Part shown: positions 9,801 through 47,332 of the stretch, one piece after another
Numbering within the stretch: the stretch's first letter is position 1
Layout of the letters: each line of letters opens with the position of its first letter
DNA from: Thermoplasmatota archaeon
GTDB lineage: Archaea; Thermoplasmatota; Penumbrarchaeia; Penumbrarchaeales; Penumbrarchaeaceae
Length of the DNA stretch: 48,127 nt
Assembly: GCA_049472175.1 (NCBI GenBank)
Contig: JBLIRF010000001.1
Span: 1-48,127 of the forward strand
Direction of reading: 5' to 3'
Translations under genes and position numbers: made by a program
Notes under the pieces: generated by a model
Databases searched by the model: none
What the model saw: only the letters and a program-made list of their open reading frames with translations
Told to the model about the DNA's origin: nothing

Positions 9801-12800
9801 AGTTGAGGACCTCGGCCGATCTTTCCACGATCACTTCTCTTGTGAACGGGTAGAAACCGTCTATTATCACCTTCATCAGGTATTCGCCCGGTGGAAGAAA
9901 TGCCTCGAACTCTCCGTCCATAAATGTGGTGCAGGAAATGGAGCCGTTCGAGTATTCGAACTGGATCTCGATGTTTTCCAGACCGAACTCGATGGGGAGA
10001 GGAACAGGGTCGTCGATGGTGGATTCCAGGTCCTCCGATGTCGTAAAGATATTGTTCCCGTCCTTGTCCCAGTATACTCTCCCGGTGACGGATGCTGTCT
10101 GGGATGCAAACAGGTTCATTTCAATATTGTCGAGACCTCCCGTACTGGGAAGGTCCTGCATATGGAAGTATGTAACATTACCAGGATAGGAAGTGTTCTC
10201 CACCTTGACCCGATAATCCGCCCTTGGCAGAAATGCCTCATAATTTCCACGATCGTTGGTAGAGATCCATACAATGGCTCCATCATCCTCCCTGATGAAC
10301 GAGAACATCGTATTGTTGATCGGAATACCGGCCTGCTTGGTGATGGTCCCATTCACCCTGAACGCCCTTCCTAGGATCAGTGTCCGGGAAACCCTATCCT
10401 TCCATCCGATCTCGACCGAGGACACAGCCGCCCAGTAGCTGTCACGGTCCAGGGAATATACATGGACAGCATAGGTCCCCTCAGGGACCTCCATGTACAG
10501 GTACCCCTCCTCATCCAGGAACGCAGACCATCTCCGGGTAATATTGTTGGTATCGGTCAGATGCACGATGCCGCCGGTAACTGGAGCTAAGGCGTTTTCA
10601 ATGTTTTCCGTGAAACTGTATTCCGCCGGATACTTGACCTTCAATTCCAGGTCGCCTCTTGGCAGCAGAGTGATATTGAAGCTGAGGTTGTCTCCCTGGT
10701 CGATCTCGAACTTCACTGGATCGTGCACGAAAGCGGTGTTGATGACATTCAAAGTGTATATTCCCGGGAAGAGTCTGTCAACCGAGAAATTGCCTGCCAG
10801 GTCGGTCCTGGCCTCGACCGACCCCCCTTCAGAGTCAGTTATGAGGACTTTCTGGTCCTGGGCGGGGAACCCGCTTACGACCTTCACCCTGCCACCGACA
10901 ATTGTATTGTCCATTCGAATGTCCTTGGTGGATTCTCCCTGCAGGTCAACCTTGTAATCGGAAATCAGCGTCTGTTCCTTGCCTCCGAAGGTGTAGATGA
11001 TGTCATATCTTCCGGGAACGAGGTCTTCGAACCTGTAGCTTCCATCGACCTCGAGCCCATACGGGCCGTAGACCTTCCCGTTCGAACCTTTCAGTTCGAA
11101 GGTGATCTCACCCTTCTCAACGAGTTCATCCTCCCCCTCGGTGAAGGCAGAGTCGCCATCCAGGTCCCAGTATATCTTACCGGAAAGTGTCTTCCCGGAT
11201 ATGACCAGGTCCCTGGTCATCTTTCCGTTATCCACCCTCCGCATCGCCAGATCGTCCGATATTTCCAGGATGGTGCTGTTGAGCAGTGATGTGGGCTGTC
11301 CGGTCGACTGGTCCATCTGGAACTGGTAAAGCATATCGTACTGGTTCTCAAGGTCTCCCTCGGTTACGACAAGGTCAGCTTCTCCAGGGGGTACTATCAA
11401 ACTGTACTCGCCGTTCGGTCCGGTGAAAACGTTCCCGTGCGGTATGCCGAAATCATCAAGGACCGTCACCCTCACCCCCGGCACGCCGACCCCTCTTTCC
11501 GTTCTTACCCGGCCTTCGACAATGGCCCCGTCATAATACATCAGATAGAATACACCCTGACCCAGGCCGGATTTGATATCGCCGCCCTCACTGCGGTACT
11601 TGGTCATGGCGACCTTGGATTCCATGGGTTTGTAATCGTCCGGGAAGGTCGAGTTGCCCTCATCCTTTTCCGAATAGTAATATGTTCTGTAGACGAGCTT
11701 CCAGTGGGTCATGTTCCATCCCTGCATCGGGGGAAGGTTCTGAAGGGTGCCCGACACACCCGGGACCGACTTGCCGTCCTGGGCTTCATTCACATCACTG
11801 GGGGAGAAACCGATGTAGGTTTTGTAGAAGAGAGAGTTATAGAAAAGATCAGTGTAGAACATCTCGTAATTCTTGATCCTGAACTTGTAACCGAGCCTCT
11901 CGGATTCCTCCTTTGCTTTTTCCATTGTGATCGGATTGTCGGGATAATCGGTCCACTGGGGGTCCTCGTTGGATCCCCTTGTATTTTCCTGGGCATACAC
12001 TTTGTACTCGAGGAAGTCCTCGGTGTTCCTGTCGGCAAGCGTTATCGGGGCGTAGAAGATACCCGTGTTGCTGCTCGAGAACGGGAACAGACGGTAGTCC
12101 ACTGCGAAGTATCTGAGAGACCTGCCGGTCGTTTCGCGGACATCATGATACAGGTCCACGATGCCTTCCTCGCCCAGGTGCATCATGGCCCCGCGGGCAG
12201 CTGCATATCTTGCATTCGGCCAGGTGAGCCCTTCGAACTTCCCGTACTTGTCGGGATTGTTCTCGACCACCTTGATGTAGTCTTCCGGCCTTCTGTATAT
12301 CCTCTGGATCTCGTAGGCGCTCCTGGTCGAGTTCTTATCGCCACCCAGATGCTTGATAAGAGCATCCCAGACGTCATCGGAGAATTTCTGGTTGTTCTTG
12401 ATCCAATCCCCCTCGAGAAGCCGAGCAGTCATCAGGGCTACAGCCTCGGATTCGTTCTGGGAAGCGATCATCGAGCCGGTGAACTGGTAACCGTTCTGGA
12501 AGTTATCCGCTGCTGTGGGGTGTTTTCCCAGAAGGAGTTCATCAAAACCATAGTCCCACCAGCTCATGAAGGCGGGTCTGTCCTCCGGAGGAACTGTTTT
12601 GTTATTCACGAGGATGTCCTGCCGTGCCAGCCATTCATATGAATCCATCCAGTATTCGCTGTGGAGTGAAGAACCGAAGGACCCAAGATATTCGAGGTTG
12701 GGATCGAAATCGCTCTTGGTCTCGGTTGGTACAGCCGCATCGAAGGCAAAGAAGAGGCTTGGGAATATCACTAGGAAACCGACGCCCAGTGCGGTCAGGA

Positions 12801-14650: not shown

Positions 14651-15190
14651 TTACTTATTCGTTTTTATTGTACTATGTTTACCATCATGGCCTGGAAGGG
14701 TCTTATCGGTCTTTTTACCGGTCCGGCCTAGCAGTACCGGGCCTGTCAGGAAGATGGAGAGGGCCATCGTTATGAAAACCTGGAGAAGCCCATCAGATGA
14801 GAGGTAAACACCGATCCTCTGGACCCTGACTAGTATCATCAAGATCGAGAAGAAACCGACAACCATCCCTGCGGTCACAAGGACTGGAACGATGGATATC
14901 CTGAGCAAACGGAACGGTTTCGGAGAGATAGAGATCTCCAGGAGGACGATGATCGGCAATAGCAGGCTGATGGTCAGAAGCAACAGTCGTGGCAGGTCCG
15001 AGAAGGAGGGTGTTCCGATATGTCCGATACTGACCATCGAGAACAGCACAAGACCTGCAAGGGACAGTGAGCGTTTTTCCCACAGGAAACCCGCAAGGAC
15101 CAATACCAGGGGGGCCGCCCAGAGCGGATTGGGATCTATCAGAACGACGGAGATCAATCCTAGATACAGGACCACAAGATACCTGATCAT
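14651..15190 (-). CDS. Polytopic membrane protein of unknown function, last gene of the DUF1616-DUF58 operon
   Basis: The 179-aa product has about 5 hydrophobic segments. Its ATG overlaps the upstream stop as ATGA at 15187-15190. No family was recognised. Confidence 0.5.
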   Translation of the reverse strand: MIRYLVVLYLGLISVVLIDPNPLWAAPLVLVLAGFLWEKRSLSLAGLVLFSMVSIGHIGTPSFSDLPRLLLLTISLLLPIIVLLEISISPKPFRLLRISIVPVLVTAGMVVGFFSILMILVRVQRIGVYLSSDGLLQVFITMALSIFLTGPVLLGRTGKKTDKTLPGHDGKHSTIKTNK

Positions 15191-16608
15191 CTACTCATCC
15201 TCCTCAGACCCGAGAGTACAGCATCACCCCTCTCACGAGGGCCGACCTCGATCACCTTCGCCCCTGCTGCCATCAACCCCCTCAGCAGTCCCTGCTTTGC
15301 CTGATGGTCCATGTAAGCCTTCTCGAGAACGTATGGTGTAATATCCTTCTTGTCCAGATGGTATGTCCAGGAGAAAGGTGATATCACAATTACCCTGTGT
15401 CCCCGTGAGACCGCGATCTTCACTGACCTGAGCAAGGATGAGGTATTCGTCTCCATATCCGATATGATAACTATGAGCAGGCCAGTCCCTTCGTAAGCCC
15501 TGATCTCCCTGAAAGCTTCGAATATCCCGGTCAAACTGTCCCTGGTCGGGGCTGCCCTGCCCCTCCTATCAAGGAACGGGGAGACATTCTCTAAGAACGG
15601 GGGAACATCGACATCGCTGGGTCGTTCGGTATACGGAGGGATACCCGGATACATGTCAGTCATTATCGGATTGGGGAGTCTGAACAGGGACATCAGGACC
15701 TGCTCCACATCCGAGGTTCCCGGGATGATATGGTCTCGGACCGTGGTCTCGTCGAAGGTTATCATACCCAATGGATGGTTCTGACGGTCCATCACTATAG
15801 CTATCTGGATCGCCAGCGCGACGGCATGATCGAGTTTCGATCTCCTCCTCACGATCTCCCTCATTGACAGAGAGGAATCCACAAGAAGAAGTGTGGGCAG
15901 GTTCGTCTCCGTTTCGTACTCCTTGGTCATCAATCTTGTCAACCGTGATGTCACCTTCCAGTCTATGTCCCTGAACCGGTCCCCCGGCAAATAATCCCTG
16001 ACTGACCTGAGGTCAGTTCTGAAGGTCCTCGTGTGCCTCCTATTGGCAGGTCCGGTTATTTCGAACTGCTTCCTTTTGGACATTATATGGGCCATAGAGA
16101 TGTCCCTTTTGGATGCCCTGACAAAGATCTCCGTCCCTGGGTCCACCAGGATCTCTGACTCGAAGAGGTCCCTCCCCTCGGTGACCTTGACCTTTAACGG
16201 TGGAAACCTAAAAGCACCCCTTTCCATCGGAACAAGGGAAAAGAATGTTTCCAGATATCTGCCCGGTTCGAGCTTCCCCTTGAAGGATGTGCTCCCCGAC
16301 CTCAGATCGAAATTATCCGGTATCAGTTCCGACCCCTGAACGTTGATCGTCTCGCTGGCGGAAAGGGTCAATTTGACACTGAACGGACTGTCCTTGTGTA
16401 TGATATCCTCAAGTACGAGCCTCTCGGAGAGTATATCAACATTCTTGACCAGACCGTGGAACTCCATCCTTCTATATGCCATGTACAGTAGGATCCCGGA
16501 ACCCACCATTGCGACCATGAGGTTTCCGATGAGATATGCCCATACGAAAAGGCAAACGACCATCACAGCAAGCACCCTGCCAAGGGCAGTGAAATTGCTG
16601 CTCATCAC
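15187..16608 (-). CDS. DUF58-family protein with two N-terminal TM helices and a vWA-like domain carrying a MIDAS motif
   Basis: The N-terminus has two hydrophobic helices. It carries the DUF58 signature region DYLPGDRFRDIDWKVTSRLTRLMTKEYE. LLVDSSLSM is a DxSxS MIDAS-type motif. The start is GTG at 16608 or ATG at 16605, and either overlaps the upstream stop. Confidence 0.7.
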   Translation of the reverse strand: MMSSNFTALGRVLAVMVVCLFVWAYLIGNLMVAMVGSGILLYMAYRRMEFHGLVKNVDILSERLVLEDIIHKDSPFSVKLTLSASETINVQGSELIPDNFDLRSGSTSFKGKLEPGRYLETFFSLVPMERGAFRFPPLKVKVTEGRDLFESEILVDPGTEIFVRASKRDISMAHIMSKRKQFEITGPANRRHTRTFRTDLRSVRDYLPGDRFRDIDWKVTSRLTRLMTKEYETETNLPTLLLVDSSLSMREIVRRRSKLDHAVALAIQIAIVMDRQNHPLGMITFDETTVRDHIIPGTSDVEQVLMSLFRLPNPIMTDMYPGIPPYTERPSDVDVPPFLENVSPFLDRRGRAAPTRDSLTGIFEAFREIRAYEGTGLLIVIISDMETNTSSLLRSVKIAVSRGHRVIVISPFSWTYHLDKKDITPYVLEKAYMDHQAKQGLLRGLMAAGAKVIEVGPRERGDAVLSGLRRMSR

Positions 16609-18098
16609 GGACCCTCCACCGAGACCCTGTGGATCACCCGGGATGTACCCTTTGGTGTCTTTAGCTGGACTTCAAGGTCCCACTCTCCCGCGGGAAGGTG
16701 GAGAGACACATCCACCGGGCCCCAGGACGAGGTGGAGTTGAACAAGGTCTCTAAAAAAAGGCCATCCGAGGGTTCCAGATCACCGGCCAATGGATAACCC
16801 TGTAAAGGTATCCAATGGCCATTATCTCCGATGCTGAAGGTGATATTGGCGATTGTGTCCTCTTCGTTCATATTACGTCCTCCGACCGAGAGAACAAGGT
16901 CGGAGCTGGGATCCATCGAGGAGGGGAGCAGAGAAGGGTCGCCTCCGGCCCCTGCCAAGAAGAACTCGATCTTTCGATTTGCGATATTCTTCAGATACCC
17001 TTCCTGGAATACCCTTATCCAGATATGGAGGTCTCGGTACTCCCTTCCATCCTTGAACAGGAGGAACCTGAGTTTGTAGGACCCCGTTTCCAGAACAGAG
17101 AAGTTGCACTGCAGTTCGATGGTCTTCTCATCCGGGACGTTGACCTCCATCGCCGGCTGCCGGTTTCTCGATATTGTAACGTTGTCGAAGGAGCCAACGG
17201 TATCGTTCCTTGCACCGGGGTCCAGTGTCATGACGAGAGTATACTCCATGTTCTCATTCTCATGGTTCCCCACGCCAATGTATAGTAAATTGCTCTCCCC
17301 GAGAAGCAAGTTCCCGGGATAACCTTCCGCTTTATGATTGGGACCCAGTATGTAGAACTCGGTGAAGGATTCACCCTCCCTGGGGACCACGATTATGTAT
17401 ACCAGCAATCCAACGGAAAGCACCATCATCACCGCGATCCCGACCGTCAATACCCTATCCATCAGTGTTTGGTCCTTGGGAAATCTCAGATCGATGACGA
17501 TGCTGAACCTATCCTCTACCGGAATGCGCATCCTTTTATAAACTGCAATTCCTCCGACAATGAGGATGAATGCGAACTGGGACACAAGTATCGGTATCAA
17601 CCTTATTCCGAGTGTATCGGGCGCCCAGTCGTAAGTATAATTGAGCACCAGTCCGATCAGAGGTGTAATGGCGATGGAAAGACCAAGTGAAAGGGCGACC
17701 CTCTCCAGACCGTCCAGACCCTTGCCTTTGGGCCAATCCGGTCCATCATCTCCGGTATCCATTCCTTTTTCTTTCTCAACAGGGGATCCCCTTCGGTCCT
17801 TCCTCCGGGTCCGGGAACCTGCCTTGCTCTCCGCCCCCTCCCTTACATCTTCGTGACCTCTCTCATCCTCGCCGGAAGGAGGCGGCACTTCCTTGCCGTC
17901 CCTGTCGAAGTACTTCTTTCTCTCGGGATACAGGCTACAAATCAGCACATATCCAGGAAAGAATAGTATGAACGGAAGCCCAAGGATTATACGGATAACA
18001 TCCAATTTGGGGATTATAAGTATGACCAGAACGAGGATGAACGAGGCTCCAATGACAGCGTAGAGATCATAAGGCCTTTCCCTGACTTCCAGTTTCAT
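16605..18098 (-). CDS. DUF1616-like archaeal membrane protein with a beta-rich extracellular C-terminal domain
   Basis: The N-terminal region YDLYAVIGASFILVLVILIIPKLDVIRIILGLPFILFFPGYVLICSLYP matches the pattern I recall for DUF1616. A charged insert of about 70 aa follows, then three more TM helices and a C-terminal beta-rich domain of about 270 aa. Confidence 0.55.
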   Translation of the reverse strand: MKLEVRERPYDLYAVIGASFILVLVILIIPKLDVIRIILGLPFILFFPGYVLICSLYPERKKYFDRDGKEVPPPSGEDERGHEDVREGAESKAGSRTRRKDRRGSPVEKEKGMDTGDDGPDWPKGKGLDGLERVALSLGLSIAITPLIGLVLNYTYDWAPDTLGIRLIPILVSQFAFILIVGGIAVYKRMRIPVEDRFSIVIDLRFPKDQTLMDRVLTVGIAVMMVLSVGLLVYIIVVPREGESFTEFYILGPNHKAEGYPGNLLLGESNLLYIGVGNHENENMEYTLVMTLDPGARNDTVGSFDNVTISRNRQPAMEVNVPDEKTIELQCNFSVLETGSYKLRFLLFKDGREYRDLHIWIRVFQEGYLKNIANRKIEFFLAGAGGDPSLLPSSMDPSSDLVLSVGGRNMNEEDTIANITFSIGDNGHWIPLQGYPLAGDLEPSDGLFLETLFNSTSSWGPVDVSLHLPAGEWDLEVQLKTPKGTSRVIHRVSVEGP

Positions 18099-19193: not shown

Positions 19194-22100
19194 TCACTCA
19201 TTCCAATCCTCAATATCGTCCATTTCTTCGAGCTCTTCAAGGTCATCGATGTCTTCCCATTCAGGTACCTCTTCATCTTCCTGATCCGCCCCTTCATTAT
19301 CCGCCTCTCCCCAGATAGGGATCTGATCCTCATCCTCGTCCCAGACAGGGACCTCGTGGGAAAGCTCCTTCCCATCAGTGTGGGGTATATCATGAACTTC
19401 AGGTACCCGGACATCTTCTTTTTCCAAAACTGTCGTGGTTTCCCTGCCGGTCTTATCCACAAACGGACGTTCTGATACTTCCGTTGGGCTTTCCTCTGCC
19501 CTGATGATCTCAATATCTTCCGATGAGGTTCTCATTTCCGGGACCATGTCCTCCCCTATATTGATCACCCGCTTCTGCTTCCTCCTCTCAGCTGCAGGTC
19601 TGATATAACCAGAACCCTCCTCCGTGGTTTCTATCTTTCCGCCTGTGGCCGGAGGGAGGTCCATCAGCTGGAGTCCTTGAGGAGGAAGTGTATGATGTAT
19701 GGGAGCCGCTGGGATAGATAAACCCGGCCTTTTTGGCCTTTTCACTTCTTCATCCTCATGCTTTCTCGACCTTTTACGTGATATTATTATTGCGATTATC
19801 ATGATTGCCAGCAGCAAGCCCACCAATCCCATTGCCAGGATACCGAAGAAAGGGATCGAGCTTCCGTCCCCGTCATCCGGCCCACCGCCTCCACTCCCGA
19901 TAAAGAAAGACCAGTTACCCCCATCGGAATTCCCTGCCTTGTCTATGATCTTCAGTGTGATGGTGTGTTCGCCTTGTTCGAGACCCTCGAACTTATAGAA
20001 GTTCCCGGTGGTGACCATCCCGAAACCCTCTCCATCGATATCTATCATGGTAGAGGCTATACCGGACACCGTGTCCTTGGCGGACCAGTAGATCATTGCC
20101 TGGTTTCCGGATACATATGACCTCTCCAGGTCAATGCTAAGTACAGGCGGGGTCAGATCGATGACCAACATCTCGGAACCCGATATGAACCACTCCCAAC
20201 CGACCCGATCCAGTGCTCTCAATGTAAAGGTATATTCCCCTTCTCCCAGCGTGAGGTTGATGTACGATGCTTCAGGATCAAGGTAAACTGCCGTGCCGTC
20301 GAATTCCAGAGACAGGTTTGCGATGCCGTTTCGGTCGAATGCGGCCCAGCTGATGTTGAACCAGTTCTCGCAAACGAACCCGGCCGGTTCGTTCACCCAT
20401 TCGAGATCGGGCAGGTGCATATCAACAATGACGCCTACGGTCCTTGTTACCAGATTACCGGCCATGTCCGAGGCAATGAGGGATATGTAATGGTCTCCCT
20501 CGATACCCAGCGCTGCATTGTAGGAAGTCCTTCCGAGCACATCCAAGAATATGCGGTTATCTATGACAAGGGTGAGGTTGCTCAGCAGATGGTCATCCAA
20601 AGCTTTCCAGGTTATCATGACCGATGAATCCTTCAGGATCTCACCGTCTGCCGGAGAGATTATCTCCACTACCGGAGGTTCTATGTCGATGACGAAGTGC
20701 AACTCCTTTTCCATTGAATTGCCCGCAGGATCGATGGCCTTTATCCTCAGCTTGTGGTTGCCTGGAGATAAGGTTAGGTCCATAGATGTGAAGTTCCCCA
20801 TGTCAAGTGCGGGTCCGTCATCAATATACAGCTCAAAACTCCTCACCTCCTGACCGAACTGGTCCCGTGATGTCCATATAACCTTGAGATCCGTTCTGTT
20901 GATCACTGAGTTCTCCTCGGGTGTCACGAAGTCCACCAGTGGAGATCTCGTATCCCTTATCACGGTGATGGTACTCTCGATGTAATTTCCGTCATCGTCC
21001 TGCAATCTTATCGAGACCGGATATTCCCCGTCCTCCGGGAGTGGGATCTCCAGCTCTCTTTCACCCCTGATGTCCTCCAGAGCTCCTTTTCCTATCTTTA
21101 AAAAAGAACGACTCCAGGGGAACTGACCGGAATATTCCCATTTCAATATGAACGATCCGTTCCGGGTCGCTGTACCATCCGGAGGCTCCACGATCTCTAT
21201 CCCGGTATCTCCACCAATAAGGATCGACAGGCTGACGTTCGTAACCGACCCTGCAAGGTCGAAAGCCCTTATGTTCATGGTGTGAGGGCCGTCCGGAAGG
21301 AGGTCGGAGAATTGCGAAATGCCGGTCCGGTCTATATATGGCCCTTCATCCAGACACGCATCCACGCGGTGAATTCCGTAATTATCCTCCACGGTGATAT
21401 TGAAGGTCACGTAGTTGTTCGAGATCACCGAACCGGGTTGCGGGGACCTGATGAATATCTGCGGAGGGGTGACATCTATGGTAAATGTGGAGGATCTAGA
21501 TAGTTCCAGACCATCGTCATCCCTAACGGTCAGCCTGACCGTATGGGGCCCTTCGCCAAGAGACCGGATGGCAGCCTTCGTACTGGGGGGAAGATAGGTG
21601 AGGAGACCGTCCACATCCAATGAAAGGTTCTCGGGAACGAAATACGGCATTAAGGTCCAGGTTATCCGATACATACTGGTCGAGTTGTATTCCCCCTCGA
21701 TCGGATGTTCGATTATGATTACATCTTCGGTTTCCGGGATGAAAACGGCGACACTGTCTTCCCCGTAAAGGCCAGCAAGATCGTAGGCCTTGACCCTGAT
21801 ATCGTGGTTACCTTTTTCAAGAAAGAGGCTTTTTTGCATACCTTCATCGACATTCACGAAAGGACCGCCGTCAAGTGAGATCATTGTCCTGGATATGCCT
21901 GACCCGATATCGGTCGCTGTCCAGGTCGCTCTGAGATATGAACGGGTGATCGTACCGGACGATGGTTCCGTGATGGTAACGACCGGTCCGGCAGTATCGA
22001 AATAGGGGTTCGTGGAGGGTCTTGTATCCAACCCGTTGCTTGGTATGGTGTAATTGATATCCACGATACCGTTGTTGTCCAGGTCAGGCTGGCGGTGGTT

Positions 22101-23210
22101 GGCCCAGAAATTACCGACGCCGCCCACGGTCCATTTGTTCTCGTAATAAGGGGAGTAATAGTTTTGGGTAGCTTGCGAACCTGATGTGGAATTATCGGTA
22201 CCTGCATTATGATAGAATATGTTCCTCCAGATGCGGTTCGTCATTCCGTTGTTCAATGCTATCGCATAGGATGTGCAGTTGCCGAAATAATTGTAAAGGA
22301 TGTGGGTATAGGTCAATCTTGTCTGGTAAGAGCCTTCCGTGTTCAATCCCACGTCGCAGGATTCGAAGGTATTGTTATCGATCACCTGGGTTGTTGTGAT
22401 CGATTGCCAAGCGAGAGAATTGAAGTAGATGCCGTTGGTCCCATGAAAATAGTTCTGAGAGATCACCAACCGATATGTTGACACTATTCTAAGAGCATCC
22501 CCATTTGAGTTGTCAAAGTGGTTATTCACTATCATGGAGCCCGTATTGCCGTCCTGAACGGTGACCTGTGAATCATGGAAGGTGGAATTTGCGATCACAC
22601 CATTACTAAAGAACCTCAGGTCCTCGTATGCTACTCCAGAGCATGTATTGTTTATAAAACGGTGTCCCGTACCCTGGCTGAACCCGATCCTTCCCGCTCC
22701 GGTCAGAACGTTCTCGGAGAATGATGAATTCTGGATGGTGACCGAACTGCAGGATAGGAAGTCGAATGAGTTCGTAGAGTATCTGATACTTGAGAAATTG
22801 CTGTTTACTATCATGATATCGTTCAGGACATAACCGTAAACAACCCTTGACCTGTCTATGGTCGTGACGTTCTCTATCACTACGTTGTCAGCATTATAAA
22901 GGAACAATGCCCACGAATCCGAGCTGGAGAAGGTTATATTGCGCAGTATGAGGTGTTTGGAAGTATTCTTTATCTGGATATTATGAGGTCCAAGATCAAG
23001 ATCTGAAACTATGTAAGGACGTGAACTTGAACCAGTACCGCTCTTAACATAAGGTGATGTGAAGGAATTATTGCCCTCGAACACTATGTTCTCATCCACA
23101 TCATCAAGCCCGTCCGAGACGGGCAGGATAACGCATAGCATCATCAACACTATCGCTATCGATGCTGCCGTTTCCCAGCATTTTATCACAGGAATACTTC
23201 CTGGCCTCAC
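19194..23210 (-). CDS. Large cell-surface protein: signal peptide, right-handed parallel beta-helix (PbH1/NosD-like), about 8 tandem Ig-like modules, TM anchor and an acidic Trp-containing cytoplasmic tail
   Basis: Beta-helix rungs are visible as NITFSS, IENVTT, IVNSNFS, IQNSSFSEN, FINNTCSG, IANSTFHDS, IVNNHFDNS, ISQNYFHG and IDNNTFESC. The Ig-like modules follow the pattern W.a.D..sGI....l.lDG......L.eG.H.i.vkA.D.AGN. The TM segment IPFFGILAMGLVGLLLAIMIIAIII lies at about 19785-19865. The tail is about 190 aa. The start is GTG at 23210. Confidence 0.7.
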   Translation of the reverse strand: MRPGSIPVIKCWETAASIAIVLMMLCVILPVSDGLDDVDENIVFEGNNSFTSPYVKSGTGSSSRPYIVSDLDLGPHNIQIKNTSKHLILRNITFSSSDSWALFLYNADNVVIENVTTIDRSRVVYGYVLNDIMIVNSNFSSIRYSTNSFDFLSCSSVTIQNSSFSENVLTGAGRIGFSQGTGHRFINNTCSGVAYEDLRFFSNGVIANSTFHDSQVTVQDGNTGSMIVNNHFDNSNGDALRIVSTYRLVISQNYFHGTNGIYFNSLAWQSITTTQVIDNNTFESCDVGLNTEGSYQTRLTYTHILYNYFGNCTSYAIALNNGMTNRIWRNIFYHNAGTDNSTSGSQATQNYYSPYYENKWTVGGVGNFWANHRQPDLDNNGIVDINYTIPSNGLDTRPSTNPYFDTAGPVVTITEPSSGTITRSYLRATWTATDIGSGISRTMISLDGGPFVNVDEGMQKSLFLEKGNHDIRVKAYDLAGLYGEDSVAVFIPETEDVIIIEHPIEGEYNSTSMYRITWTLMPYFVPENLSLDVDGLLTYLPPSTKAAIRSLGEGPHTVRLTVRDDDGLELSRSSTFTIDVTPPQIFIRSPQPGSVISNNYVTFNITVEDNYGIHRVDACLDEGPYIDRTGISQFSDLLPDGPHTMNIRAFDLAGSVTNVSLSILIGGDTGIEIVEPPDGTATRNGSFILKWEYSGQFPWSRSFLKIGKGALEDIRGERELEIPLPEDGEYPVSIRLQDDDGNYIESTITVIRDTRSPLVDFVTPEENSVINRTDLKVIWTSRDQFGQEVRSFELYIDDGPALDMGNFTSMDLTLSPGNHKLRIKAIDPAGNSMEKELHFVIDIEPPVVEIISPADGEILKDSSVMITWKALDDHLLSNLTLVIDNRIFLDVLGRTSYNAALGIEGDHYISLIASDMAGNLVTRTVGVIVDMHLPDLEWVNEPAGFVCENWFNISWAAFDRNGIANLSLEFDGTAVYLDPEASYINLTLGEGEYTFTLRALDRVGWEWFISGSEMLVIDLTPPVLSIDLERSYVSGNQAMIYWSAKDTVSGIASTMIDIDGEGFGMVTTGNFYKFEGLEQGEHTITLKIIDKAGNSDGGNWSFFIGSGGGGPDDGDGSSIPFFGILAMGLVGLLLAIMIIAIIISRKRSRKHEDEEVKRPKRPGLSIPAAPIHHTLPPQGLQLMDLPPATGGKIETTEEGSGYIRPAAERRKQKRVINIGEDMVPEMRTSSEDIEIIRAEESPTEVSERPFVDKTGRETTTVLEKEDVRVPEVHDIPHTDGKELSHEVPVWDEDEDQIPIWGEADNEGADQEDEEVPEWEDIDDLEELEEMDDIEDWNE
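19910..22010 (-). repeat. Protein-level tandem array of about 8 Ig-like modules of roughly 90 aa inside the beta-helix surface protein
   Basis: Repeated blocks include ATWTATDIGSGISRTMISLDGGPF..EKGNHDIRVKAYDLAG, VIWTSRDQFGQEVRSFELYIDDGP..SPGNHKLRIKAIDPAGN, ITWKALDDHLLSNLTLVIDN..EGDHYISLIASDMAGN and IYWSAKDTVSGIASTMIDIDGEG..EQGEHTITLKIIDKAGN. Confidence 0.6.
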
Positions 23211-30186: not shown

Positions 30187-31017
30187 TCAGGGACGGAACT
30201 CGAAACCGTTCACCAAACTGATGTTCCCATCCGGCATGAGACGGGCTTCCCTGAAGAATACGATCGATCCATCCATTTCATGGTCCACGGGCAACGAGGG
30301 GAGGGTCTCCCAGGGGATATGGACCGGGAGAGGGCAGTCTCCCGATTCAAGGACATCCTTCCCCAAATCGAAAAGGACCAGTGGAGGGTCAATGACCATT
30401 ATGTCCCCGCATCCCAGGGAGGTCTCATCCCTCCAACCCGGAATGACCGCTCCGGGCCCGTTCAAAAGAGAGTCCAGTTCAGCAACAAGGGATGGGAGGG
30501 GGAGCTTCCCGATCTCCTCCGGATATACGTATACACTGCCATCGGAGCATTGAGATGGAATGCACATCCTCAGGACAAATGGAGTTCGGGCCGTGAAACC
30601 CCCTGACAACAGGGAGATCTTTCGGGAGAGCGATCCGTTCAACCCAACCGGGCTCAGAGGGGGGAGGCTGGGAATTATCCACGATCCGGTCGCTGCCATT
30701 GAAAGGTGCTCACCTCTCCTTATCGATAATGCACCTGGTCTTACTTCGATGTCGAAATACCCTTCGTTCACCGAGGAAGGCAAAACAATGCTCCCATCAT
30801 CAATGGCCCCGCCATCCCCGAACGTTATCTTCATGGATGATCCAGCTTCTTTGAGATGGAGGGTGTTTATCAACAGACCAAGCTCACTCGAGATCTCCTT
30901 CATCCGTTCGAGCGGTTCTTGCTCCATCCTTCCGACAAGGGATCCCCCGAAAAGACCCGCAAGAACGAGTACCGAAAGCATAAGGCCTGCCCTGAACAGC
31001 ATATCCTGATCTATCAT
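30187..31017 (-). CDS. Hypothetical secreted or membrane-anchored protein
   Basis: The ORF is open to 31254. The only N-terminal signal-anchor, MIDQDMLFRAGLMLSVLVLAGLFGGSLVG, begins at the ATG at 31017 or 31002. Using either start removes the 150-200 nt overlap with the divergent gene. No family was recognised. Confidence 0.45.
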   Translation of the reverse strand: MIDQDMLFRAGLMLSVLVLAGLFGGSLVGRMEQEPLERMKEISSELGLLINTLHLKEAGSSMKITFGDGGAIDDGSIVLPSSVNEGYFDIEVRPGALSIRRGEHLSMAATGSWIIPSLPPLSPVGLNGSLSRKISLLSGGFTARTPFVLRMCIPSQCSDGSVYVYPEEIGKLPLPSLVAELDSLLNGPGAVIPGWRDETSLGCGDIMVIDPPLVLFDLGKDVLESGDCPLPVHIPWETLPSLPVDHEMDGSIVFFREARLMPDGNISLVNGFEFRP

Positions 31018-39688: not shown

Positions 39689-40246
39689 TCATTTTCCATT
39701 TGGAATGACATCGTATATGAAATCGATACCCCTCTTCGTTATCTTGTACCTTCCCTGCTTCTTGCCGTGTTCCAGCAGACCCTTGCGGTCCTCCGACATC
39801 TTTCTAAGGAAGTAGCTGAGGTTCTTTGGGGTTTCCACCTTCAGCTTCTTGTAGAGCGGAGGAAGGTCCATTGCCCTGAACTCCCTCTTCCCCTCTACCT
39901 TGTTAATGTAATATCCCAGGAGAATGACCCTCTGGTTCTCTCTCTTTGGTGCTTTGATCTTGAAGATCTGTTCAAGGGTCATCTTGCTCATGTCGACCCT
40001 GTCCTTCTTGGGGACCTTCTTCGATTTGGCCTTCTTTTTGGGTTTCGGACCGGGCTTCTTCTTCCTGCCCGGTTTCTTCCTTCTCTTTGACGGTTTCTTG
40101 TCAGCCAGGCTTCTTGGGACCTTGAGATCCTTGTCAAGTATCCTACGTATTTCGTTGAATGCTTTCTTTACAAACTTCCTGTCCCCTGCCAACTCAACAA
40201 CCAAATCTTCCCCTTTTACTTTAATTCTGTACATCTTTTCATCCAT
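39689..40246 (-). CDS. Hypothetical DNA-binding-like protein: small N-domain, Lys/Pro-rich basic linker and a winged-helix-like C-terminal domain
   Basis: The linker KKPSKRRKKPGRKKKPGPKPKKKAKSKKVPKK lies at about 39997-40126. The C-terminus reads NLSYFLRKMSEDRKGLLEHGKKQGRYKITKRGIDFI. GGAGGTG lies 8 nt upstream of the ATG, and an AT-rich promoter region precedes it. Confidence 0.5.
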   Translation of the reverse strand: MDEKMYRIKVKGEDLVVELAGDRKFVKKAFNEIRRILDKDLKVPRSLADKKPSKRRKKPGRKKKPGPKPKKKAKSKKVPKKDRVDMSKMTLEQIFKIKAPKRENQRVILLGYYINKVEGKREFRAMDLPPLYKKLKVETPKNLSYFLRKMSEDRKGLLEHGKKQGRYKITKRGIDFIYDVIPNGK

Positions 40247-41590: not shown

Positions 41591-44500
41591 TCAAACCCTC
41601 TCCACACCCCCCTCCCATATGACCACTCTGAGCAGGTAGAAGTCCTGTGTCATTCCGATGTTGCCGATATCATAGAAGAGCGATACAATGGCATCAGGAG
41701 CATCCTTGATATAGACACCCATGCTGATGAAGATCCCTCCCACATCCCGTCCCAGAAGCTTCATCGGGAGGGCCAGATTGACCTTCCCCATAATAGCCAG
41801 TGTGAAAGAATCAGGTAGATCAGCCCCTTCCGGGGCCATATTGGCGATCGGGCCTGGCATCTCCACCTCCATGAACATATCCAGGCCTATGTAGCACCTT
41901 GAGAGGATAGCCATGGGAAAGGCCCGGTAATCTCCGGAATTCTCCGGGTCGGCAAGGTTATTGATGAAGATCTTGATGTTCCCATAAAGCCAGGAAAGAA
42001 AATCCGCAACTGCTTCTCCATCAGCCTGGAAGGACAGCTCCAGCCCACCTCCGGCTGATCCCGATGCATCCTCGATCTCCACGGAAAGGAACATACGGAC
42101 ATCGACCACCAGCTCTCTGACCACTGAAAGGAATCTCTCCATGAACAGCTCGATCGCTCTTTCAAGGAACGGGACCACCACATCGAAGGTCAGGCCAAAG
42201 ATGCGGTATGATTCTGTCCAGGCTTCCTTGAGCGAGGTCAGTGCAATGGATATCAGAAGTGACCTGATATTGGTGGGAAGGGCTCCTCCATTGGGGGCTT
42301 CGGGAGTCCCCGAGGTTTCCCTCCATACACCATACCCATCAGCATCCCTCGAGTACCAACCTCCAATGTCCAGATCAGCCTCAAGATCATCCCAGATCAG
42401 ACCAGATGGGGACCTTAAGACTATTCGAACACGCCCATCGTCCGGTATCCTGCCTTCCCACCTCCATAGACAAGTTTGGTCGATACCGCAAAGAGAGTAC
42501 CTTTCAGCCTCGGGCTCAAGGCTCCATGATCCGATCAAGCATCCCTCTAGATTCTCGATGGACAGGGTGGAGCTGTAAACGGGAAAGCACCTGGGATTGA
42601 ATATCTCGATCTCTGAGATGTTCCTCCCGTACAAGTGCACCTCGTTGATGTGTGGGCCCAGTTCTTCCGGCATCCTGTAGTTGAGCCTGAATCCAGCATC
42701 TATCACGGCCTGCACTCCAAGGGGTGGGATCGGAATGAAGGGCTCGATCCCAAGAGTGTCACCAAGTGATACCTGACAGGACCTGTACTCTTCCAGGGCC
42801 GGGCATTCGATGGAGGCCATCAGGTACTCGCCTGGACCCGCCTCGTATCGGGCCTCTATCGATATCATGTGAGGAGCCCTCAGCATGAAAGGATCAAGCT
42901 CGAGCCTGAGATACAGGGGGCCGATATCGAAGGTCACGATTCCACTGAAGTCGAACTTACCTCCGTCGACCCTGTTGAAGGACATGAAGCAGCACATACC
43001 TATCGATGATATGTCGAGAGATATGTTCAGGATGTTGCCTTCCTCACCCATCAATGCTCCCCTTTCCGTATGGAGCCCTGCCCTGAAAGGCCCCATATCG
43101 AGTTCAAGTTCTATCTCGTCTATTCCAAGGACCCTGCATGTCGCGTTCAATATCCCGCTTATCCCCAGATCGATCAGGTGTCGGATGAGGTCCTTGACGG
43201 TCTCCCTCAATGTGGAGGAGAGGTCCAGGGTCACATTGGATGCCACCCTTGCAATTTCCGCGATGTCGAGATCGTTTCCCCTCACTATCTCGAGTACGAT
43301 GGGCGGAACCTCCCTCAATGAGGACATGGACCCACCCAGCAGGTCCTGGACAAGACAGTTCAATTCCGCCTTAAGAGAATCACCTGCCTCGAGGACCCGG
43401 TCCACCAGGTATTCTTGGAAATTACCTGTTTGCACGTATTCAACTCCGAGCATTGGCCATTGAGAACCCACTTCGAAGTTGATAGAAAGTGACACGGGGA
43501 AGCTCATGTTCGAGGCCCCCATGACCTCAAGATCCTTCTCCCTCAGGATGAACACGATGTCGTAAGTCCCCTTCAAGTCAAGCTGATAACCGGTTGTGTA
43601 CGGTGCGGAGCTGTCAAGAGGGTCAGTATCGTATTCTCCGGATGAAGGACTCAGAACGGTCTGGTACGTTTCTTTCCTGTGGATCCGGAGGTCCGTGTAC
43701 AGTTCCCGATGTCCCGGGGCATCGAAGTTCATCCCTGAGACCTCGATATGATCATCCTTCGGTAACGGAGGCAGGAAGAACCTGCCTCCAGCAAGATGAA
43801 GGCCCTGGTCGAACGAGCTACCTATGGCATCCAATCCTTTCCTCACGAGCCTCTCCACCTCCTTCATGACGCCAAGGCTGTCCCCGTTGTATGAGGAGAA
43901 GGTCAACTCGAACCCCCTCGTGGAAGGCTGTACCATTTCTCTCCTTATCCATCCTTCCTCGTCCGTACCGCTTCCATCTCCGAACTCCCTCCTTGTCATC
44001 TCCAGATATGATGATGAAACGTATGAGGACCAGAGCATGTCAAGTTCGGGATCCATGGGGATCTTGACACACAGTCCGAGAGCTATCCATTTTGCGAGTT
44101 CGGGGTACTGGTAGAGAACCTCGGTATTGTCCTTTCCGAACTCCACCTTGTTCCCTCCGTAAATGACGCACTCCTGGGTTTTTTCGATGTCCATTATATG
44201 AACGGTGGTGTTATCGAAGATGATGGAGGTGCAGTTCTCCTCACAGCTCTTCATCTGGCCGCCCCTGTCGGCCCAGATATCGTAATTCATCAGAAGCCAG
44301 TCGGCAATAAGCGCCGAATATCCTTTCTCGACCTCGAAGAGGGTTTCGAAAAGGCTCACTGCATTGAACTCCTCCACAAGGGCGGATGCGAAATCCTCCA
44401 CCAGTTCCATGAGAGGCCACAGATCGCAATCGATCATGGAGCCGACAGAAGGGAAGGCGTTATCCATCGATGTGATTTCCTCGATGGTCCATCCCCTCCA

Positions 44501-46225
44501 GAGCTTCAACCATCTATCGTTGGCAGGAGTCGTTGTACTTCTGAAGAGCTCGTCTATCACCTTTTTAATGGCATACCTGCCCTTCTCACGGAACTCGTTC
44601 TCCGACAGGGAACCTGTGTCACTCTCGTCCGTTCCAAGGAAGTAGGCAAGGGACGAGATGAACTCCTCATCGGCAAGCAGGTCTCGGGACCTGAACGGTG
44701 GTTCCATGGGGTCGAAATCAAAGAAGGCGGTGACATTGTATATACTGCACATCAGACCAACGAATTCCTCGGATGGATCGTAGTATTCCGCCTTTGAATG
44801 TATGGTTCCGTTCACGGAACGATAGTATTCGTTACTCGGTCCACCGTCCGACAAGCCGATCTCGAAGCACCTTTCCATACCGGGGATATCTATGACGGGA
44901 TAGGTGGATATCGCAGCCCCGTTCCATGATGCTCCCGGCATCCCCCTGACCATTATTAGGTCATCATCAGGGTCGAGAAGCGGACTTCTCTCCAGCAGGG
45001 CCTTTAAAATACCTTCCGCCGTCTCTCTGCTGGCATCGATGATATCGATACCAAGGATCGAGCTCGAAAGGGAATCCGCTGCCTCGACCCCAAGTTCCAT
45101 GATGGTCTTCAATCCCCCCAGACCCGAATACAGATCATCATCCAGCCCGATGTAGGAGACGATCCTGTTCACGATGAGGTCCACCATAGAATAGAAGAAG
45201 GGTCTGAACATGGTCTGAAGAGAAGGCGGATTGTCCTGATGGAAGATGCCCTCTCCGAGGAGCACCATCATGCCTGGATCGATGTAACAGGTGGAATTCT
45301 CAAGAACATCGATGAGGGTAGTCTCACCTATGGCTCCGGGGGCGGAGGCGAGCGATCCTCCGATATCCTCCATGAAATGCTCATCTCTTGACCTCAGATA
45401 CGACTGGGCGAGCAGGGAGAAGGCAAGGTCCATCACCGAAACGAGCTCATTATCCGTGAGGAGAGAGAGAGGGACTATCTCGCCGGCCCCTGGCTCCCTC
45501 CCGTACCCCATCAGGCATTTCATCTGGGCAAGTGACCCGACCATGTATTCCACCAGGGATGACATCTCTCCACTTTCAACTGCATCCTGCAACCTCCCCA
45601 TGCGACTTTTTAAAAAAACTGCCATTGAGAACCTGCTGACCTCGATATCGAGCTCGTCCTTCATCACCATAGATCCAAAACGGTCCTTCATTTCAAGCTC
45701 GATATGGACCGTCGTATTCACACCGAACATCTCCGTCCTGGTGCATATGGAAGGAAGCCCGGAAATGTCGGGCTCCGTTCTTGTCCCCGGAACTGGAATG
45801 TCCACACCGCCCTGGATCGGCCTCGAGTCCACGGTCCAGTTTGTGATGTCGAACAGGAACCTGGCATCATCGGCCTGATGAGAAATACCGATGCTCTCGA
45901 TCTCCGTCGAGAGCTGTTCCATCAGCCTGGCCTCCACATATCCATCCAATCTTTGACCTGATGCCTCTCTGGAAAGTTCCGCATCAGCATAGGCCATCGA
46001 TTCATCGTGCATGGAAACGATCTCGCGAGAGAGCGAGGTCCTGAACTCCTCCAGCTCCGAGACCATATCGGATATCCTGGACCCCTCTCTCAAGTTCCTG
46101 TCCCATTCCCGTTCGATCGATAATTGATACGACACATAGAAAGTCGTCAGCACCATGAGGGAGATCGCCAGATATGCGAAAGCCTCCCTCCCGTTGATGT
46201 CATCCTTTATGCAGAGATACCTCAC
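41591..46225 (-). CDS. Giant hypothetical protein (1544 aa) with a single N-terminal hydrophobic anchor; no catalytic family recognised
   Basis: The ORF is uninterrupted. Its GTG start overlaps the upstream stop as GTGA at 46222-46225. The N-terminus is MRYLCIKDDINGREAFAYLAISLMVLTTFYVSYQL. The remainder is acidic and mixed alpha/beta with scattered Cys. A lamin-tail-like stretch lies near 42300-42652. Confidence 0.6.
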   Translation of the reverse strand: MRYLCIKDDINGREAFAYLAISLMVLTTFYVSYQLSIEREWDRNLREGSRISDMVSELEEFRTSLSREIVSMHDESMAYADAELSREASGQRLDGYVEARLMEQLSTEIESIGISHQADDARFLFDITNWTVDSRPIQGGVDIPVPGTRTEPDISGLPSICTRTEMFGVNTTVHIELEMKDRFGSMVMKDELDIEVSRFSMAVFLKSRMGRLQDAVESGEMSSLVEYMVGSLAQMKCLMGYGREPGAGEIVPLSLLTDNELVSVMDLAFSLLAQSYLRSRDEHFMEDIGGSLASAPGAIGETTLIDVLENSTCYIDPGMMVLLGEGIFHQDNPPSLQTMFRPFFYSMVDLIVNRIVSYIGLDDDLYSGLGGLKTIMELGVEAADSLSSSILGIDIIDASRETAEGILKALLERSPLLDPDDDLIMVRGMPGASWNGAAISTYPVIDIPGMERCFEIGLSDGGPSNEYYRSVNGTIHSKAEYYDPSEEFVGLMCSIYNVTAFFDFDPMEPPFRSRDLLADEEFISSLAYFLGTDESDTGSLSENEFREKGRYAIKKVIDELFRSTTTPANDRWLKLWRGWTIEEITSMDNAFPSVGSMIDCDLWPLMELVEDFASALVEEFNAVSLFETLFEVEKGYSALIADWLLMNYDIWADRGGQMKSCEENCTSIIFDNTTVHIMDIEKTQECVIYGGNKVEFGKDNTEVLYQYPELAKWIALGLCVKIPMDPELDMLWSSYVSSSYLEMTRREFGDGSGTDEEGWIRREMVQPSTRGFELTFSSYNGDSLGVMKEVERLVRKGLDAIGSSFDQGLHLAGGRFFLPPLPKDDHIEVSGMNFDAPGHRELYTDLRIHRKETYQTVLSPSSGEYDTDPLDSSAPYTTGYQLDLKGTYDIVFILREKDLEVMGASNMSFPVSLSINFEVGSQWPMLGVEYVQTGNFQEYLVDRVLEAGDSLKAELNCLVQDLLGGSMSSLREVPPIVLEIVRGNDLDIAEIARVASNVTLDLSSTLRETVKDLIRHLIDLGISGILNATCRVLGIDEIELELDMGPFRAGLHTERGALMGEEGNILNISLDISSIGMCCFMSFNRVDGGKFDFSGIVTFDIGPLYLRLELDPFMLRAPHMISIEARYEAGPGEYLMASIECPALEEYRSCQVSLGDTLGIEPFIPIPPLGVQAVIDAGFRLNYRMPEELGPHINEVHLYGRNISEIEIFNPRCFPVYSSTLSIENLEGCLIGSWSLEPEAERYSLCGIDQTCLWRWEGRIPDDGRVRIVLRSPSGLIWDDLEADLDIGGWYSRDADGYGVWRETSGTPEAPNGGALPTNIRSLLISIALTSLKEAWTESYRIFGLTFDVVVPFLERAIELFMERFLSVVRELVVDVRMFLSVEIEDASGSAGGGLELSFQADGEAVADFLSWLYGNIKIFINNLADPENSGDYRAFPMAILSRCYIGLDMFMEVEMPGPIANMAPEGADLPDSFTLAIMGKVNLALPMKLLGRDVGGIFISMGVYIKDAPDAIVSLFYDIGNIGMTQDFYLLRVVIWEGGVERV

Positions 46226-46713
46226 GGGAACCTGCCTCCTATCTCCATGGAACCATCATGGATCGAAAGATACACAAGAAAGACCCAGCCGGTCCCGTCT
46301 CCATGGGTCCATCTTACGAACTCGCCCCCGGGTGGGCCAAATGTATATTCGGAATTGGATACTATGAGCATGGATTGAAGGCCGTCCGGAGTTGCCGAAA
46401 GAATACACGAAAGACCGGATAGCGGGTGCGATGTATCGTTGAACGATTTCCGAACATCGCGTCCATCCCAGACCAGGACGATCTCATCATCCAAGAGAGT
46501 GTCCGGCATGCCTGCTACTGAACCCTGCAGGTAGGCTATAAGGGAAATACCAAGGCTCCTTGCCTGGTAGTTCCTCAGATATACGAGGTCCTCATCATGG
46601 CCTTCGCTCTCCTGAATGAAAGAGAGGGCCCCGAATATGAGCCCCGCGGAGATGATCAGAAGGAACATCGAGGTTGCGGTCTCCATCCCGATCGTGTCAT
46701 TTGGATCCCTCAT
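46222..46713 (-). CDS. Small hypothetical protein with an N-terminal hydrophobic anchor (possible pilin-like class III signal)
   Basis: The N-terminus is MRDPNDTIGMETATSMFLLIISAGLIFGALSF. The ATG overlaps the upstream stop as ATGA at 46710-46713. The product is 163 aa. Confidence 0.45.
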   Translation of the reverse strand: MRDPNDTIGMETATSMFLLIISAGLIFGALSFIQESEGHDEDLVYLRNYQARSLGISLIAYLQGSVAGMPDTLLDDEIVLVWDGRDVRKSFNDTSHPLSGLSCILSATPDGLQSMLIVSNSEYTFGPPGGEFVRWTHGDGTGWVFLVYLSIHDGSMEIGGRFP

Positions 46714-47165
46714 TCTCCGGAACCCCCATAGATGGAAACCTCCATGACGCAGGGGAACATAACTGCACCATTGTCGATGAGAACGGTACAGCCATGAACG
46801 ATCGAGCGGTGTTCTGCCATTCCGACAGAACTGTCAAGGAACCCCTGAGAGAAGTGAAAGCTCAGAAAAAAGGACACCGACCTGAATGCCACTGTAACCT
46901 CCCCGCTCAGAGGGAACGGGCAGCTTTTAAAACTGTCCAGAGAGGAGATAGCTTCCATTTCAAGTATGCCATCCCCATCCGGGTCGAACCCTCTCCATGT
47001 CCTGATCGAACCTAGGACGAACACCCAATCCACCGGATCTTTTTCCGGACCATCACCTTCCATTGTTCCCACGCCGTATATCAAGGACAGTACAATAACA
47101 ATAGCAAGAGAGAATGCCAGCAGGTCCCCTGCACAGGAGACGGCACCAACGTCCCCAATCCTCAT
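46710..47165 (-). CDS. Small hypothetical protein with an N-terminal hydrophobic anchor; first gene of the operon
   Basis: I prefer the ATG at 47165 (MRIGDVGAVSCAGDLLAFSLAIVIVLSLIYG). A TATA-like box lies about 31 nt upstream, inside the longer ORF-track model that runs to 47270. Confidence 0.4.
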   Translation of the reverse strand: MRIGDVGAVSCAGDLLAFSLAIVIVLSLIYGVGTMEGDGPEKDPVDWVFVLGSIRTWRGFDPDGDGILEMEAISSLDSFKSCPFPLSGEVTVAFRSVSFFLSFHFSQGFLDSSVGMAEHRSIVHGCTVLIDNGAVMFPCVMEVSIYGGSGE

Positions 47166-47188
47166 GACCGGAAAAGAAAGGAGATGGG

Positions 47189-47202
47189 ATTTAAAATTTA
47201 TC
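47189..47202 (-). promoter_or_regulatory. TATA-like box of the three-gene giant-protein operon
   Basis: The minus strand reads GATAAATTTTAAAT, centred about 31 nt upstream of the ATG at 47165. Confidence 0.35.
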
Positions 47203-47332
47203 TGACCAGTATCAGGACCGTTGTTTTGGCCTCGTTCAAATCTATCATTCCGCATGATCGAAGCCTGCATAATGGGGCAGGTTATGCCCTATCACGCCGA
47301 ATTTGGATCGTGACCCCATGGAGCAGATGAGC

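Follow-up and report, generated by a model that had tools for sequence, protein, structure and literature searches.

Among described systems in which two small proteins and one large one are encoded together, the bacterial Tad pseudopilins TadE, TadF and TadG share a pilin-like N-terminal helix that carries an acidic residue. Type IV pilin-like proteins in general combine a short charged leader, a Gly or Ala, some 20 residues of hydrophobic helix and an outer domain rich in beta structure; in their class III signal the hydrophobic domain is preceded at -1 by G, A or S, and archaeal prepilin peptidases are described as depending critically on a charged residue at -2 (PMC4371748). The genes for archaeal pilins frequently lie in trans, apart from those for assembly (PMC4858521; PMC12448462), and Methanomethylophilus alvus and BRNA1 have one clade-4 secretion ATPase each (supplement of PMC4858521). 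The small archaellum accessory proteins FlaF and FlaG (ArlF and ArlG) have an N-terminal hydrophobic helix that is not cleaved off and an outer domain rich in beta structure, and are thought to link a membrane machine to the surface layer (PMC12448462). The exterior of the Thermoplasmatales bears an unordered protein layer of about 20 nm, and S-layer-like (surface-layer-like) genes were not found in the genomes of this order (PMC12448462); Methanomethylophilus alvi has neither a wall nor an S-layer (PMC10673518). The subject of the present analysis is an operon of three genes, A, B and C, in a 48,127-nt contig from a Thermoplasmatota metagenome-assembled genome (MAG), a stretch called the window below. 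An earlier note on this DNA had described the operon as an orphan with no recognisable function and had likened its products to a minor-pilin set with a giant tip or adhesin subunit.

On the sequence comparisons made here the operon is real, conserved and uncharacterised, and C belongs to a large and unstudied Thermoplasmatota family. Ten close relatives of C were found, 1473-1544 aa in length and 38-100% identical, all of them in Thermoplasmatota assemblies, and the trio recurs in nine independent contigs or contexts whose flanks otherwise differ (L001-L006 and the P0007 contig, the latter without DNA, with L007-L009 reached via distant homologues of A and B). In every context fetched the giant gene comes after two small ones, encoding 147-152 aa and 154-168 aa, and the overlaps are almost always of 4 nt; across these contexts the identity of C falls to 38% or less (about 31% for P0048, the L007 copy). 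Co-occurrence of the three genes, which the earlier note had posed as a test, was borne out, and they form a conserved module in nine contexts. A linkage to rsgA, also raised earlier, did not extend beyond the closest relatives: rsgA follows C in L001, L004 and L005, with a toxin-antitoxin pair intervening in L001, and since it is linked only there it is not part of the module.

The window contains archaeal markers elsewhere, namely the A and B subunits of topoisomerase VI, the PolD small subunit and an AglB/STT3 fusion protein, all of which fit the archaeal assignment, and the GC content across the operon (0.52-0.54) is the same as that of the remaining window. The three co-directional open reading frames (ORFs) are ordered A, B, C on the minus strand and, exactly as had been claimed, are joined by 4-nt stop/start overlaps, ATGA at 46710-46713 (A/B) and GTGA at 46222-46225 (B/C). 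NTGA overlaps are kept at both junctions in six homologous loci, that of the A/B junction in L005 holding if B starts at the ATG overlapping the A stop and not at the called start. GGAGG-like Shine-Dalgarno motifs are found 8-15 nt 5' of the B and C starts in every locus compared, which supports the called starts and translational coupling. The ORF originally read for gene A from its first ATG (46710-47270, 186 aa) proved too long, as 21/21 homologues contain, and most begin at, the motif MR[IV][GE][DN]VG, and it is this motif that sets the start given in the table. The concern that the giant ORF of C might be an assembly chimera is removed by the ten homologues, which are collinear and come from independent assemblies.

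Neither A, B, C nor the further gene D discussed below has a match in Pfam or NCBIfam, or a sequence match in the PDB. All four proteins are acidic (pI 4.3-4.7, and about 4.3 for A, B and C), and A, B and C each possess one N-terminal hydrophobic helix and no other helix of that kind. The common N-terminal layout seen by the earlier note is real and conserved, with an invariant Gly in B and C and with A invariant from residue 1 (MRIGDVGAVS..GDLLAFSLA in 21 sequences). Protein A has its transmembrane helix at about residues 11-34, with a DPDGDG loop and a small domain of four strands beyond it, and its AlphaFold2 (AF2) model, built from 21 sequences (pLDDT 80, pTM 0.61), resolves the helix at 11-34, a flexible low-confidence linker, short helices, the DPDGDG loop and four strands. 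D61, D65 and G66 of the loop are invariant in the 21 sequences and D63 is nearly so, and 2-3 members of the A family give weak EF-hand matches in Pfam. Protein B has a variable basic leader of 7-10 aa and then an invariant Gly, which is followed by M-E-T in the seven closest relatives and by F-E-T and I-E-T in L007 and L008, which are more distant; the rest of the protein is a single transmembrane helix and an acidic domain of ~130 aa. Homology between A and B was not found by hhalign. In both proteins the stretch after the helix is more negative than the leader.

Protein C begins with a variable leader of 10-12 aa, followed by an invariant Gly (G12), the sequence [RK]-E-A-F-A-Y-L-A, a single hydrophobic helix and a large ectodomain. 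The helix is conserved in all full-length homologues and has a Kyte-Doolittle mean, calculated by hand, of 1.59, just below the cut-off of 1.6. An AF2 model of residues 345-1544 from seven sequences has a mean pLDDT of 39.6 and consists of mixed long strands and long helices, its only confident part being a beta-sandwich at residues 1189-1294 (pLDDT 57-83 over residues 1189-1283). Foldseek paired this sandwich with the lamin B2 tail (2lll) at a probability of 1.00 and a TMt of 0.49, and the Pfam lamin-tail domain (LTD, PF00932) matches of five relatives map onto residues 1189-1283, so that this segment, as judged from model and alignment together, is a degenerate LTD. Pfam recognises the LTD in 15/34 relatives at E values up to 0.01 (best 4e-12), although some matches fall below the gathering score of 34.3 bits (P0101, for example, at 26.7 bits). 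C of the window differs from the prokaryotic LTD surface proteins in that it gives no Pfam match even at E values up to 1 and lies below any LTD threshold, the NPxGxDxGxEW loop having been lost from the LTD in the window's subfamily. The earlier statement that C contains no recognisable motif therefore holds for the Pfam and NCBIfam searches but not for residues 1189-1283. The LTD accounts for 6% of C, and the other ~1450 residues match nothing. Across the wide C family the invariant columns hold Gly, Trp and Phe, those that are nearly invariant hold mostly Pro, Asp and Gly, and no catalytic-type motif is evident among these conserved columns.

The extent of the family was established with a profile of C residues 345-1544, which recovered 184 representatives (of clusters at 50%), 47 of them at E 1e-30 or better. 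The close subfamily with the G[RK]EAFAYLA N-terminus accounts for about 17 of the 184; the other representatives are 1265-1690 aa in length and have in common a C-terminal region of ~670 residues (profile positions ~520-1193), and the N-termini of the distant relatives resemble ...[KR][GA][QSN]MPFA[LV]IAV. The source names of C relatives comprise only Thermoplasmatota, Thermoplasmata, Methanomassiliicoccales and Methanomethylophilaceae MAGs. A scan of one genome per species revealed at least 423 stretches encoding a C relative, mostly from Methanomassiliicoccales, and the 80 of these that were kept were almost all from that order. With so many relatives, and with an LTD in C itself, the terms 'orphan' and 'no recognisable function' were overstated. 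Viral and plasmid collections contained no relatives of C, and an origin in such elements was excluded on that basis. In the literature no paper was found that mentions lamin tail domains in Methanomassiliicoccales.

Many C relatives are labelled 'lamin tail domain-containing protein' by NCBI, and the extra domains present in the family are LTD, PKD, Big_5, TSP3, DUF11 and TGase_elicitor. These domains are typical of extracellular proteins. In P0152, P0167 and P0172, 3 of the 34 members run against Pfam, there are additional C-terminal bacterial TSP3 repeats together with a TGase_elicitor (transglutaminase) domain, at E values down to 1e-31, and this module hints that some members of the C family may cross-link surface proteins. 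The anchor region of 7/34 distant C relatives matches positions 1-56 of the profile of DUF7286 (PF23957), a large archaeal family of unknown function that we take to be haloarchaeal and presumably associated with type IV pilus (T4P) loci. All of these matches lie below the gathering cut-off (15-18 bits against 27) and none extends past the N-terminus; C of the window has no DUF7286 match, and no paper mentioning DUF7286 to DUF7289 was found in the literature.

In Methanomassiliicoccales the C-like gene stands alone, with neither A nor B, in a conserved housekeeping neighbourhood. The order in Methanomethylophilaceae (L010-L089) is mevalonate kinase, geranylgeranyl reductase, a divergent HMPTM-type radical SAM protein, the C-like gene, a NOG1-type GTPase and the PolD large subunit, its recurrence having been judged from about ten inspected loci (e.g. 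L012, 3844-16424). The radical SAM neighbour was considered as a tetraether synthase, and hence as a link to lipids, and was rejected as such because the zinc ribbon that Pfam identifies in it is of the HMPTM type. Further C-family loci came from metagenomes scanned with an intermediate subfamily, among them L106, L109 and L115, in which two small N-terminally anchored ORFs with 4-nt overlaps precede a C relative 17-28% identical to other members; P0058-type loci are without two small upstream ORFs. From these comparisons of gene order the three-part layout is recurrent across deep branches and is not universal. No similarity was detected by hhalign between A and A' or between B and B', the primed names denoting the small ORFs of the distant subfamilies, and with hidden Markov models of A, B and D no match was obtained in 80 Methanomethylophilaceae loci or elsewhere in the window.

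Gene D is a candidate fourth component. Its homologues (260-276 aa) lie convergent to and directly downstream of C in L002, L003 and L007 and gave tblastn E values of 4e-21, 5e-21 and 2e-8 against the window. In both the window and L007 the genes that come after D are the same, encoding an NTP-transferase and a dual-specificity phosphatase.

The region upstream of gene A is also conserved. The TATA-like box reported earlier can be read at the position given in the table, and an A/T-rich box lies at an equal distance from the A start in 9/9 aligned loci. Its spacing of ~30 nt from the start codon suggests that the mRNA of gene A is leaderless or nearly so. The motif CTGATACTGG, found by alignment of the loci, is conserved in the window, L001, L004 and L005, partly in L006 and not in more distant loci, and may represent a B recognition element (BRE) or the site of a regulator. 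Codons 2, 4, 5 and 6 of gene A are each represented by a single codon across nine loci whose A proteins are only ~30% identical, whereas conserved residues from codon 7 onwards use 2-5 codons each, with the exception of D14, for which GAC alone is used. This invariance of synonymous sites indicates that the first 18 nt of gene A are under constraint at the nucleotide level, which may act on the beginning of a leaderless mRNA or reflect a DNA-binding site; a search of Rfam gave no match for these 18 nt. An AsnC-type helix-turn-helix gene and a PCI-domain gene are situated just upstream of the operon in L001, L005 and L006.

Coordinates of the operon, its sequence elements and other features of the window
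Feature	Positions	Strand	Description
Gene A	46710-47165	-	151 aa; start set by 21 homologues
Gene B	46222-46713	-	163 aa; start overlaps A stop (ATGA)
Gene C	41591-46225	-	1544 aa; pI 4.3; GTG start overlaps B stop (GTGA)
Gene D	30187-31017	-	~276 aa; N-terminal transmembrane helix; ~10 kb from C; no family match; candidate fourth component
TATA-like box GATAAATTTTAAAT	47189-47202	-	~30 nt 5' of gene A start codon (MRIG)
Motif CTGATACTGG	47206-47215	-	directly upstream of TATA-like box; from locus alignment
First 18 nt of gene A, ATGAGGATTGGGGACGTT	47148-47165	-	synonymous sites invariant in nine loci
DPDGDG loop of A, residues 61-66	46968-46985	-	DxDxDG type, of the calcium-binding kind
N-terminal hydrophobic helix of C, residues 15-33, AFAYLAISLMVLTTFYVSY	46127-46183	-	conserved in all full-length homologues
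Degenerate LTD of C, residues 1189-1283	42377-42661	-	from AF2, Foldseek and Pfam mapping of relatives
Giant predicted surface protein	918-4766	+	1282 aa; BNR repeats
AglB/STT3 fusion	6895-14553	-	2552-aa ORF
DUF58 gene	15187-16608		adjoins AglB/STT3 fusion
DUF1616 gene	16605-18098		adjoins AglB/STT3 fusion
Giant predicted surface protein	19194-23210	-	1338 aa; beta-helix and Big_7/Big_13 repeats
Lysine-rich protein	39689-40246	-	185 aa; lysine-rich centre KKPSKRRKKPGRKKKPGPKPKKKAKSKK; weak C-terminal winged-helix match

Several other genes of the window are of interest in their own right. The oligosaccharyltransferase of the AglB/STT3 fusion is joined to many CarboxypepD_reg, SdrD_B and CARDB repeats, making it an unusually large predicted N-glycosylation enzyme, and the DUF58 and DUF1616 genes adjoin it. 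Relatives of the 1338-aa predicted surface protein occur near the operon in L001 and L007, and the 185-aa lysine-rich protein is kept downstream of rsgA in L001, L004 and L005.

The explanation preferred here, though held with no more than middling confidence, is that A, B and C constitute a translationally coupled, N-terminally anchored and non-enzymatic complex of the cell surface. Transcription of the three genes would start at an archaeal TATA promoter and give an mRNA that is probably leaderless, from which the three proteins would be made in fixed proportion. Each protein would be inserted with its N-terminus inside and its C-terminus outside, held by the single N-terminal hydrophobic helix, an outside topology that is supported by the charge distribution in A and B and that fits the add-on domains of the relatives. 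C would thereby provide an acidic ectodomain of ~1500 residues ending in a lamin-tail-type beta-sandwich, and A and B would be small accessory subunits, probably joined to C via the three membrane helices or via their ectodomains. The resulting assembly would be a membrane-anchored surface complex dominated by the C ectodomain, its likely role being structural or adhesive, in the cell envelope or a surface coat of a lineage that is often without a wall and an S-layer. The topology, the physical association of A, B and C and the surface-structural role are what we infer from these data. A number of points weigh against such a complex. That A, B and C make physical contact is itself something we infer rather than observe, and most of the distant C relatives are without A- or B-like partners. 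In C of the window neither side of the helix is more charged than the other, so that its topology rests on homologues, and the 12 sequons in C are unremarkable in density when compared with the ~7 expected by chance on a rough estimate. The fold of C is for the most part poorly modelled, at the low mean pLDDT given above, which leaves room for an enzymatic or transport function. The conserved Gly before the helix, finally, hints at a processing that a plain signal anchor would not explain.

That Gly is at the centre of an alternative, derived from the earlier note, in which a prepilin peptidase and a PilB/PilC-type machine encoded elsewhere would act on these proteins, with cleavage after the Gly and with C as a tip or adhesin subunit; we regard this as unlikely, without dismissing it. 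In agreement with a class III signal, B (G9) and C (G12) have the invariant Gly directly before the hydrophobic helix and after a variable charged leader, and A has an invariant G13 before DLLAFSLA. The residues on either side of the Gly are unlike those of known sites. At -2 the close C family has N, F, H, Q or S (0/10 charged) and A has A, V, I or S, whilst in B the position is variable, being charged in 2/7 close relatives, or 3/9 when L007 and L008 are included, and it is uncharged in A, B and C of the window. Charged residues appear just after the Gly in place of an uncharged stretch from +1 (R/K-E in C, M-E in B and D in A). The invariance of the 13 N-terminal residues of A is likewise not that of a variable leader. 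A rule-based class III test passed 0/21 A sequences, 0/7 B sequences and 14/16 C sequences, the last only via an alternative EA/F site (the slash marking the cleavage point). The same test passed 37/91 distant C relatives via genuine-looking sites of the form [KR][GA]/[QSNA]MPFA..., such as KG/QMPFA and RA/QMPFA, which are like the known KGQV and RAQI (PMC4371748), and the weak DUF7286 matches of 7/34 relatives point in the same direction. On this evidence a class III signal has partial support in the C family and none in A. The presence of a Gly followed within two residues by Asp or Glu in all three proteins (A G13-D, B G9-M-E, C G12-R-E) hints that their N-termini are handled in a common way.

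The other evidence bearing on a pilin identity concerns folds and machinery. Two small proteins together with a large one bring minor-pilin sets to mind. Pfam searches up to E 5 found no pilin, archaellin or TadE family in A, B or their analogues, and a Foldseek search with the confident model of A found no similar solved structure in the PDB and no pilin (best E 0.15). For the analogy with TadE/TadF/TadG there is no TadE_N or other Tad match and no tad locus, and the position of the acidic residue and the domain of life are different; for FlaF/FlaG there is no sequence or fold match, nor are there archaellum genes near the operon. As the earlier note had observed, no PilB, PilC or peptidase gene is nearby, the T2SSE, T2SSF and A24 families being absent from the window and from the Pfam lists of the nine annotated contexts. 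A scan of 1.8 Mb of flanks from 127 loci for the Walker A motif taken as typical of secretion ATPases (G..G[SAT]GK[ST]T) gave no ORF of the secretion-ATPase type and only those of the ABC, MeaB and FtsY types. The pilin alternative is weakened by all this but retains some probability, as archaeal pilins are often encoded apart from their machinery and M. alvus has its clade-4 ATPase. The argument that T4P ATPases are missing from genomes encoding the wide family was dropped in view of the ATPases listed for M. alvus and BRNA1 in the supplement of PMC4858521. No finding shows C to be a pilus tip.

It could also be supposed that C is a giant membrane-anchored machine, acting in bridge-like transfer of lipids or polymers or in membrane remodelling or fusion, with A and B in regulatory or docking roles, which seems to us improbable. 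Such proteins likewise have an N-terminal anchor and, after it, a region like the ~1500 residues of C in which long strands and long helices are mixed, and a helical segment (profile ~846-936) matches the tape-measure protein FtbJ at E 8e-8 and, much more weakly, the heptad regions of viral fusion proteins at E 0.08-0.6. The FtbJ match, however, extends over four overlapping repeats with high bias and was rejected as compositional, and PDB sequence searches with the close-family and wide-family profiles returned only compositional helical matches of this sort (FtbJ and designed helical bundles). Porins, LptD, lipovitellin and MTP are among the top low-probability Foldseek matches, but with the lamin tail set aside the probabilities are 0.02-0.3, and at so low a model pLDDT these matches were disregarded. 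The proximity of the Methanomethylophilaceae gene to mevalonate kinase and geranylgeranyl reductase would suit a lipid function; against this, the radical SAM neighbour is of the HMPTM type rather than a lipid enzyme, and NOG1 and PolD make up the rest of the neighbourhood. A last alternative, that A, B and C are mere neighbours, unrelated membrane proteins with no common function, we consider very improbable. It draws on the absence of detectable similarity between A and B, or between either and the A'/B' ORFs, and on the solitary C genes of most of the distant relatives; on the other side, the nine contexts agree in gene order, sizes and 4-nt overlaps while C has diverged to 38% identity or less and the flanks have changed completely, and the same architecture is found in L106, L109 and L115 at a C identity of only 17-28%.

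If the preferred reading of a coupled, anchored surface complex is correct, an exterior protein layer like that of the Thermoplasmatales would be a possible place for it, and the C family, Thermoplasmatota-only so far, is a reasonable candidate for a component of such a layer. A bolder version, to which we attach little probability, is that in wall-less Thermoplasmatota the unordered layer found in place of an S-layer would have the C family as its principal scaffold, inserted by way of a variant class III-like signal (Gly at -1, an acidic residue at +1 or +2) that is cut by a prepilin-type peptidase, with no pilus being made, and with A, B and perhaps D as membrane adaptors keeping the giant subunit in position.

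Many Thermoplasmatota, including the methanogenic Methanomassiliicoccales of the gut, are without a wall and an S-layer. A giant, acidic and N-terminally anchored family that is present across the sampled Thermoplasmatota, and by named sources only there, is a concrete candidate for the protein of their surface coat. The pairing of C with two dedicated small partners in several lineages offers defined targets for proteomics, cryo-electron tomography and genetics, and the A-B-C set allows the limits to which a processed class III-like signal peptide may diverge to be probed.

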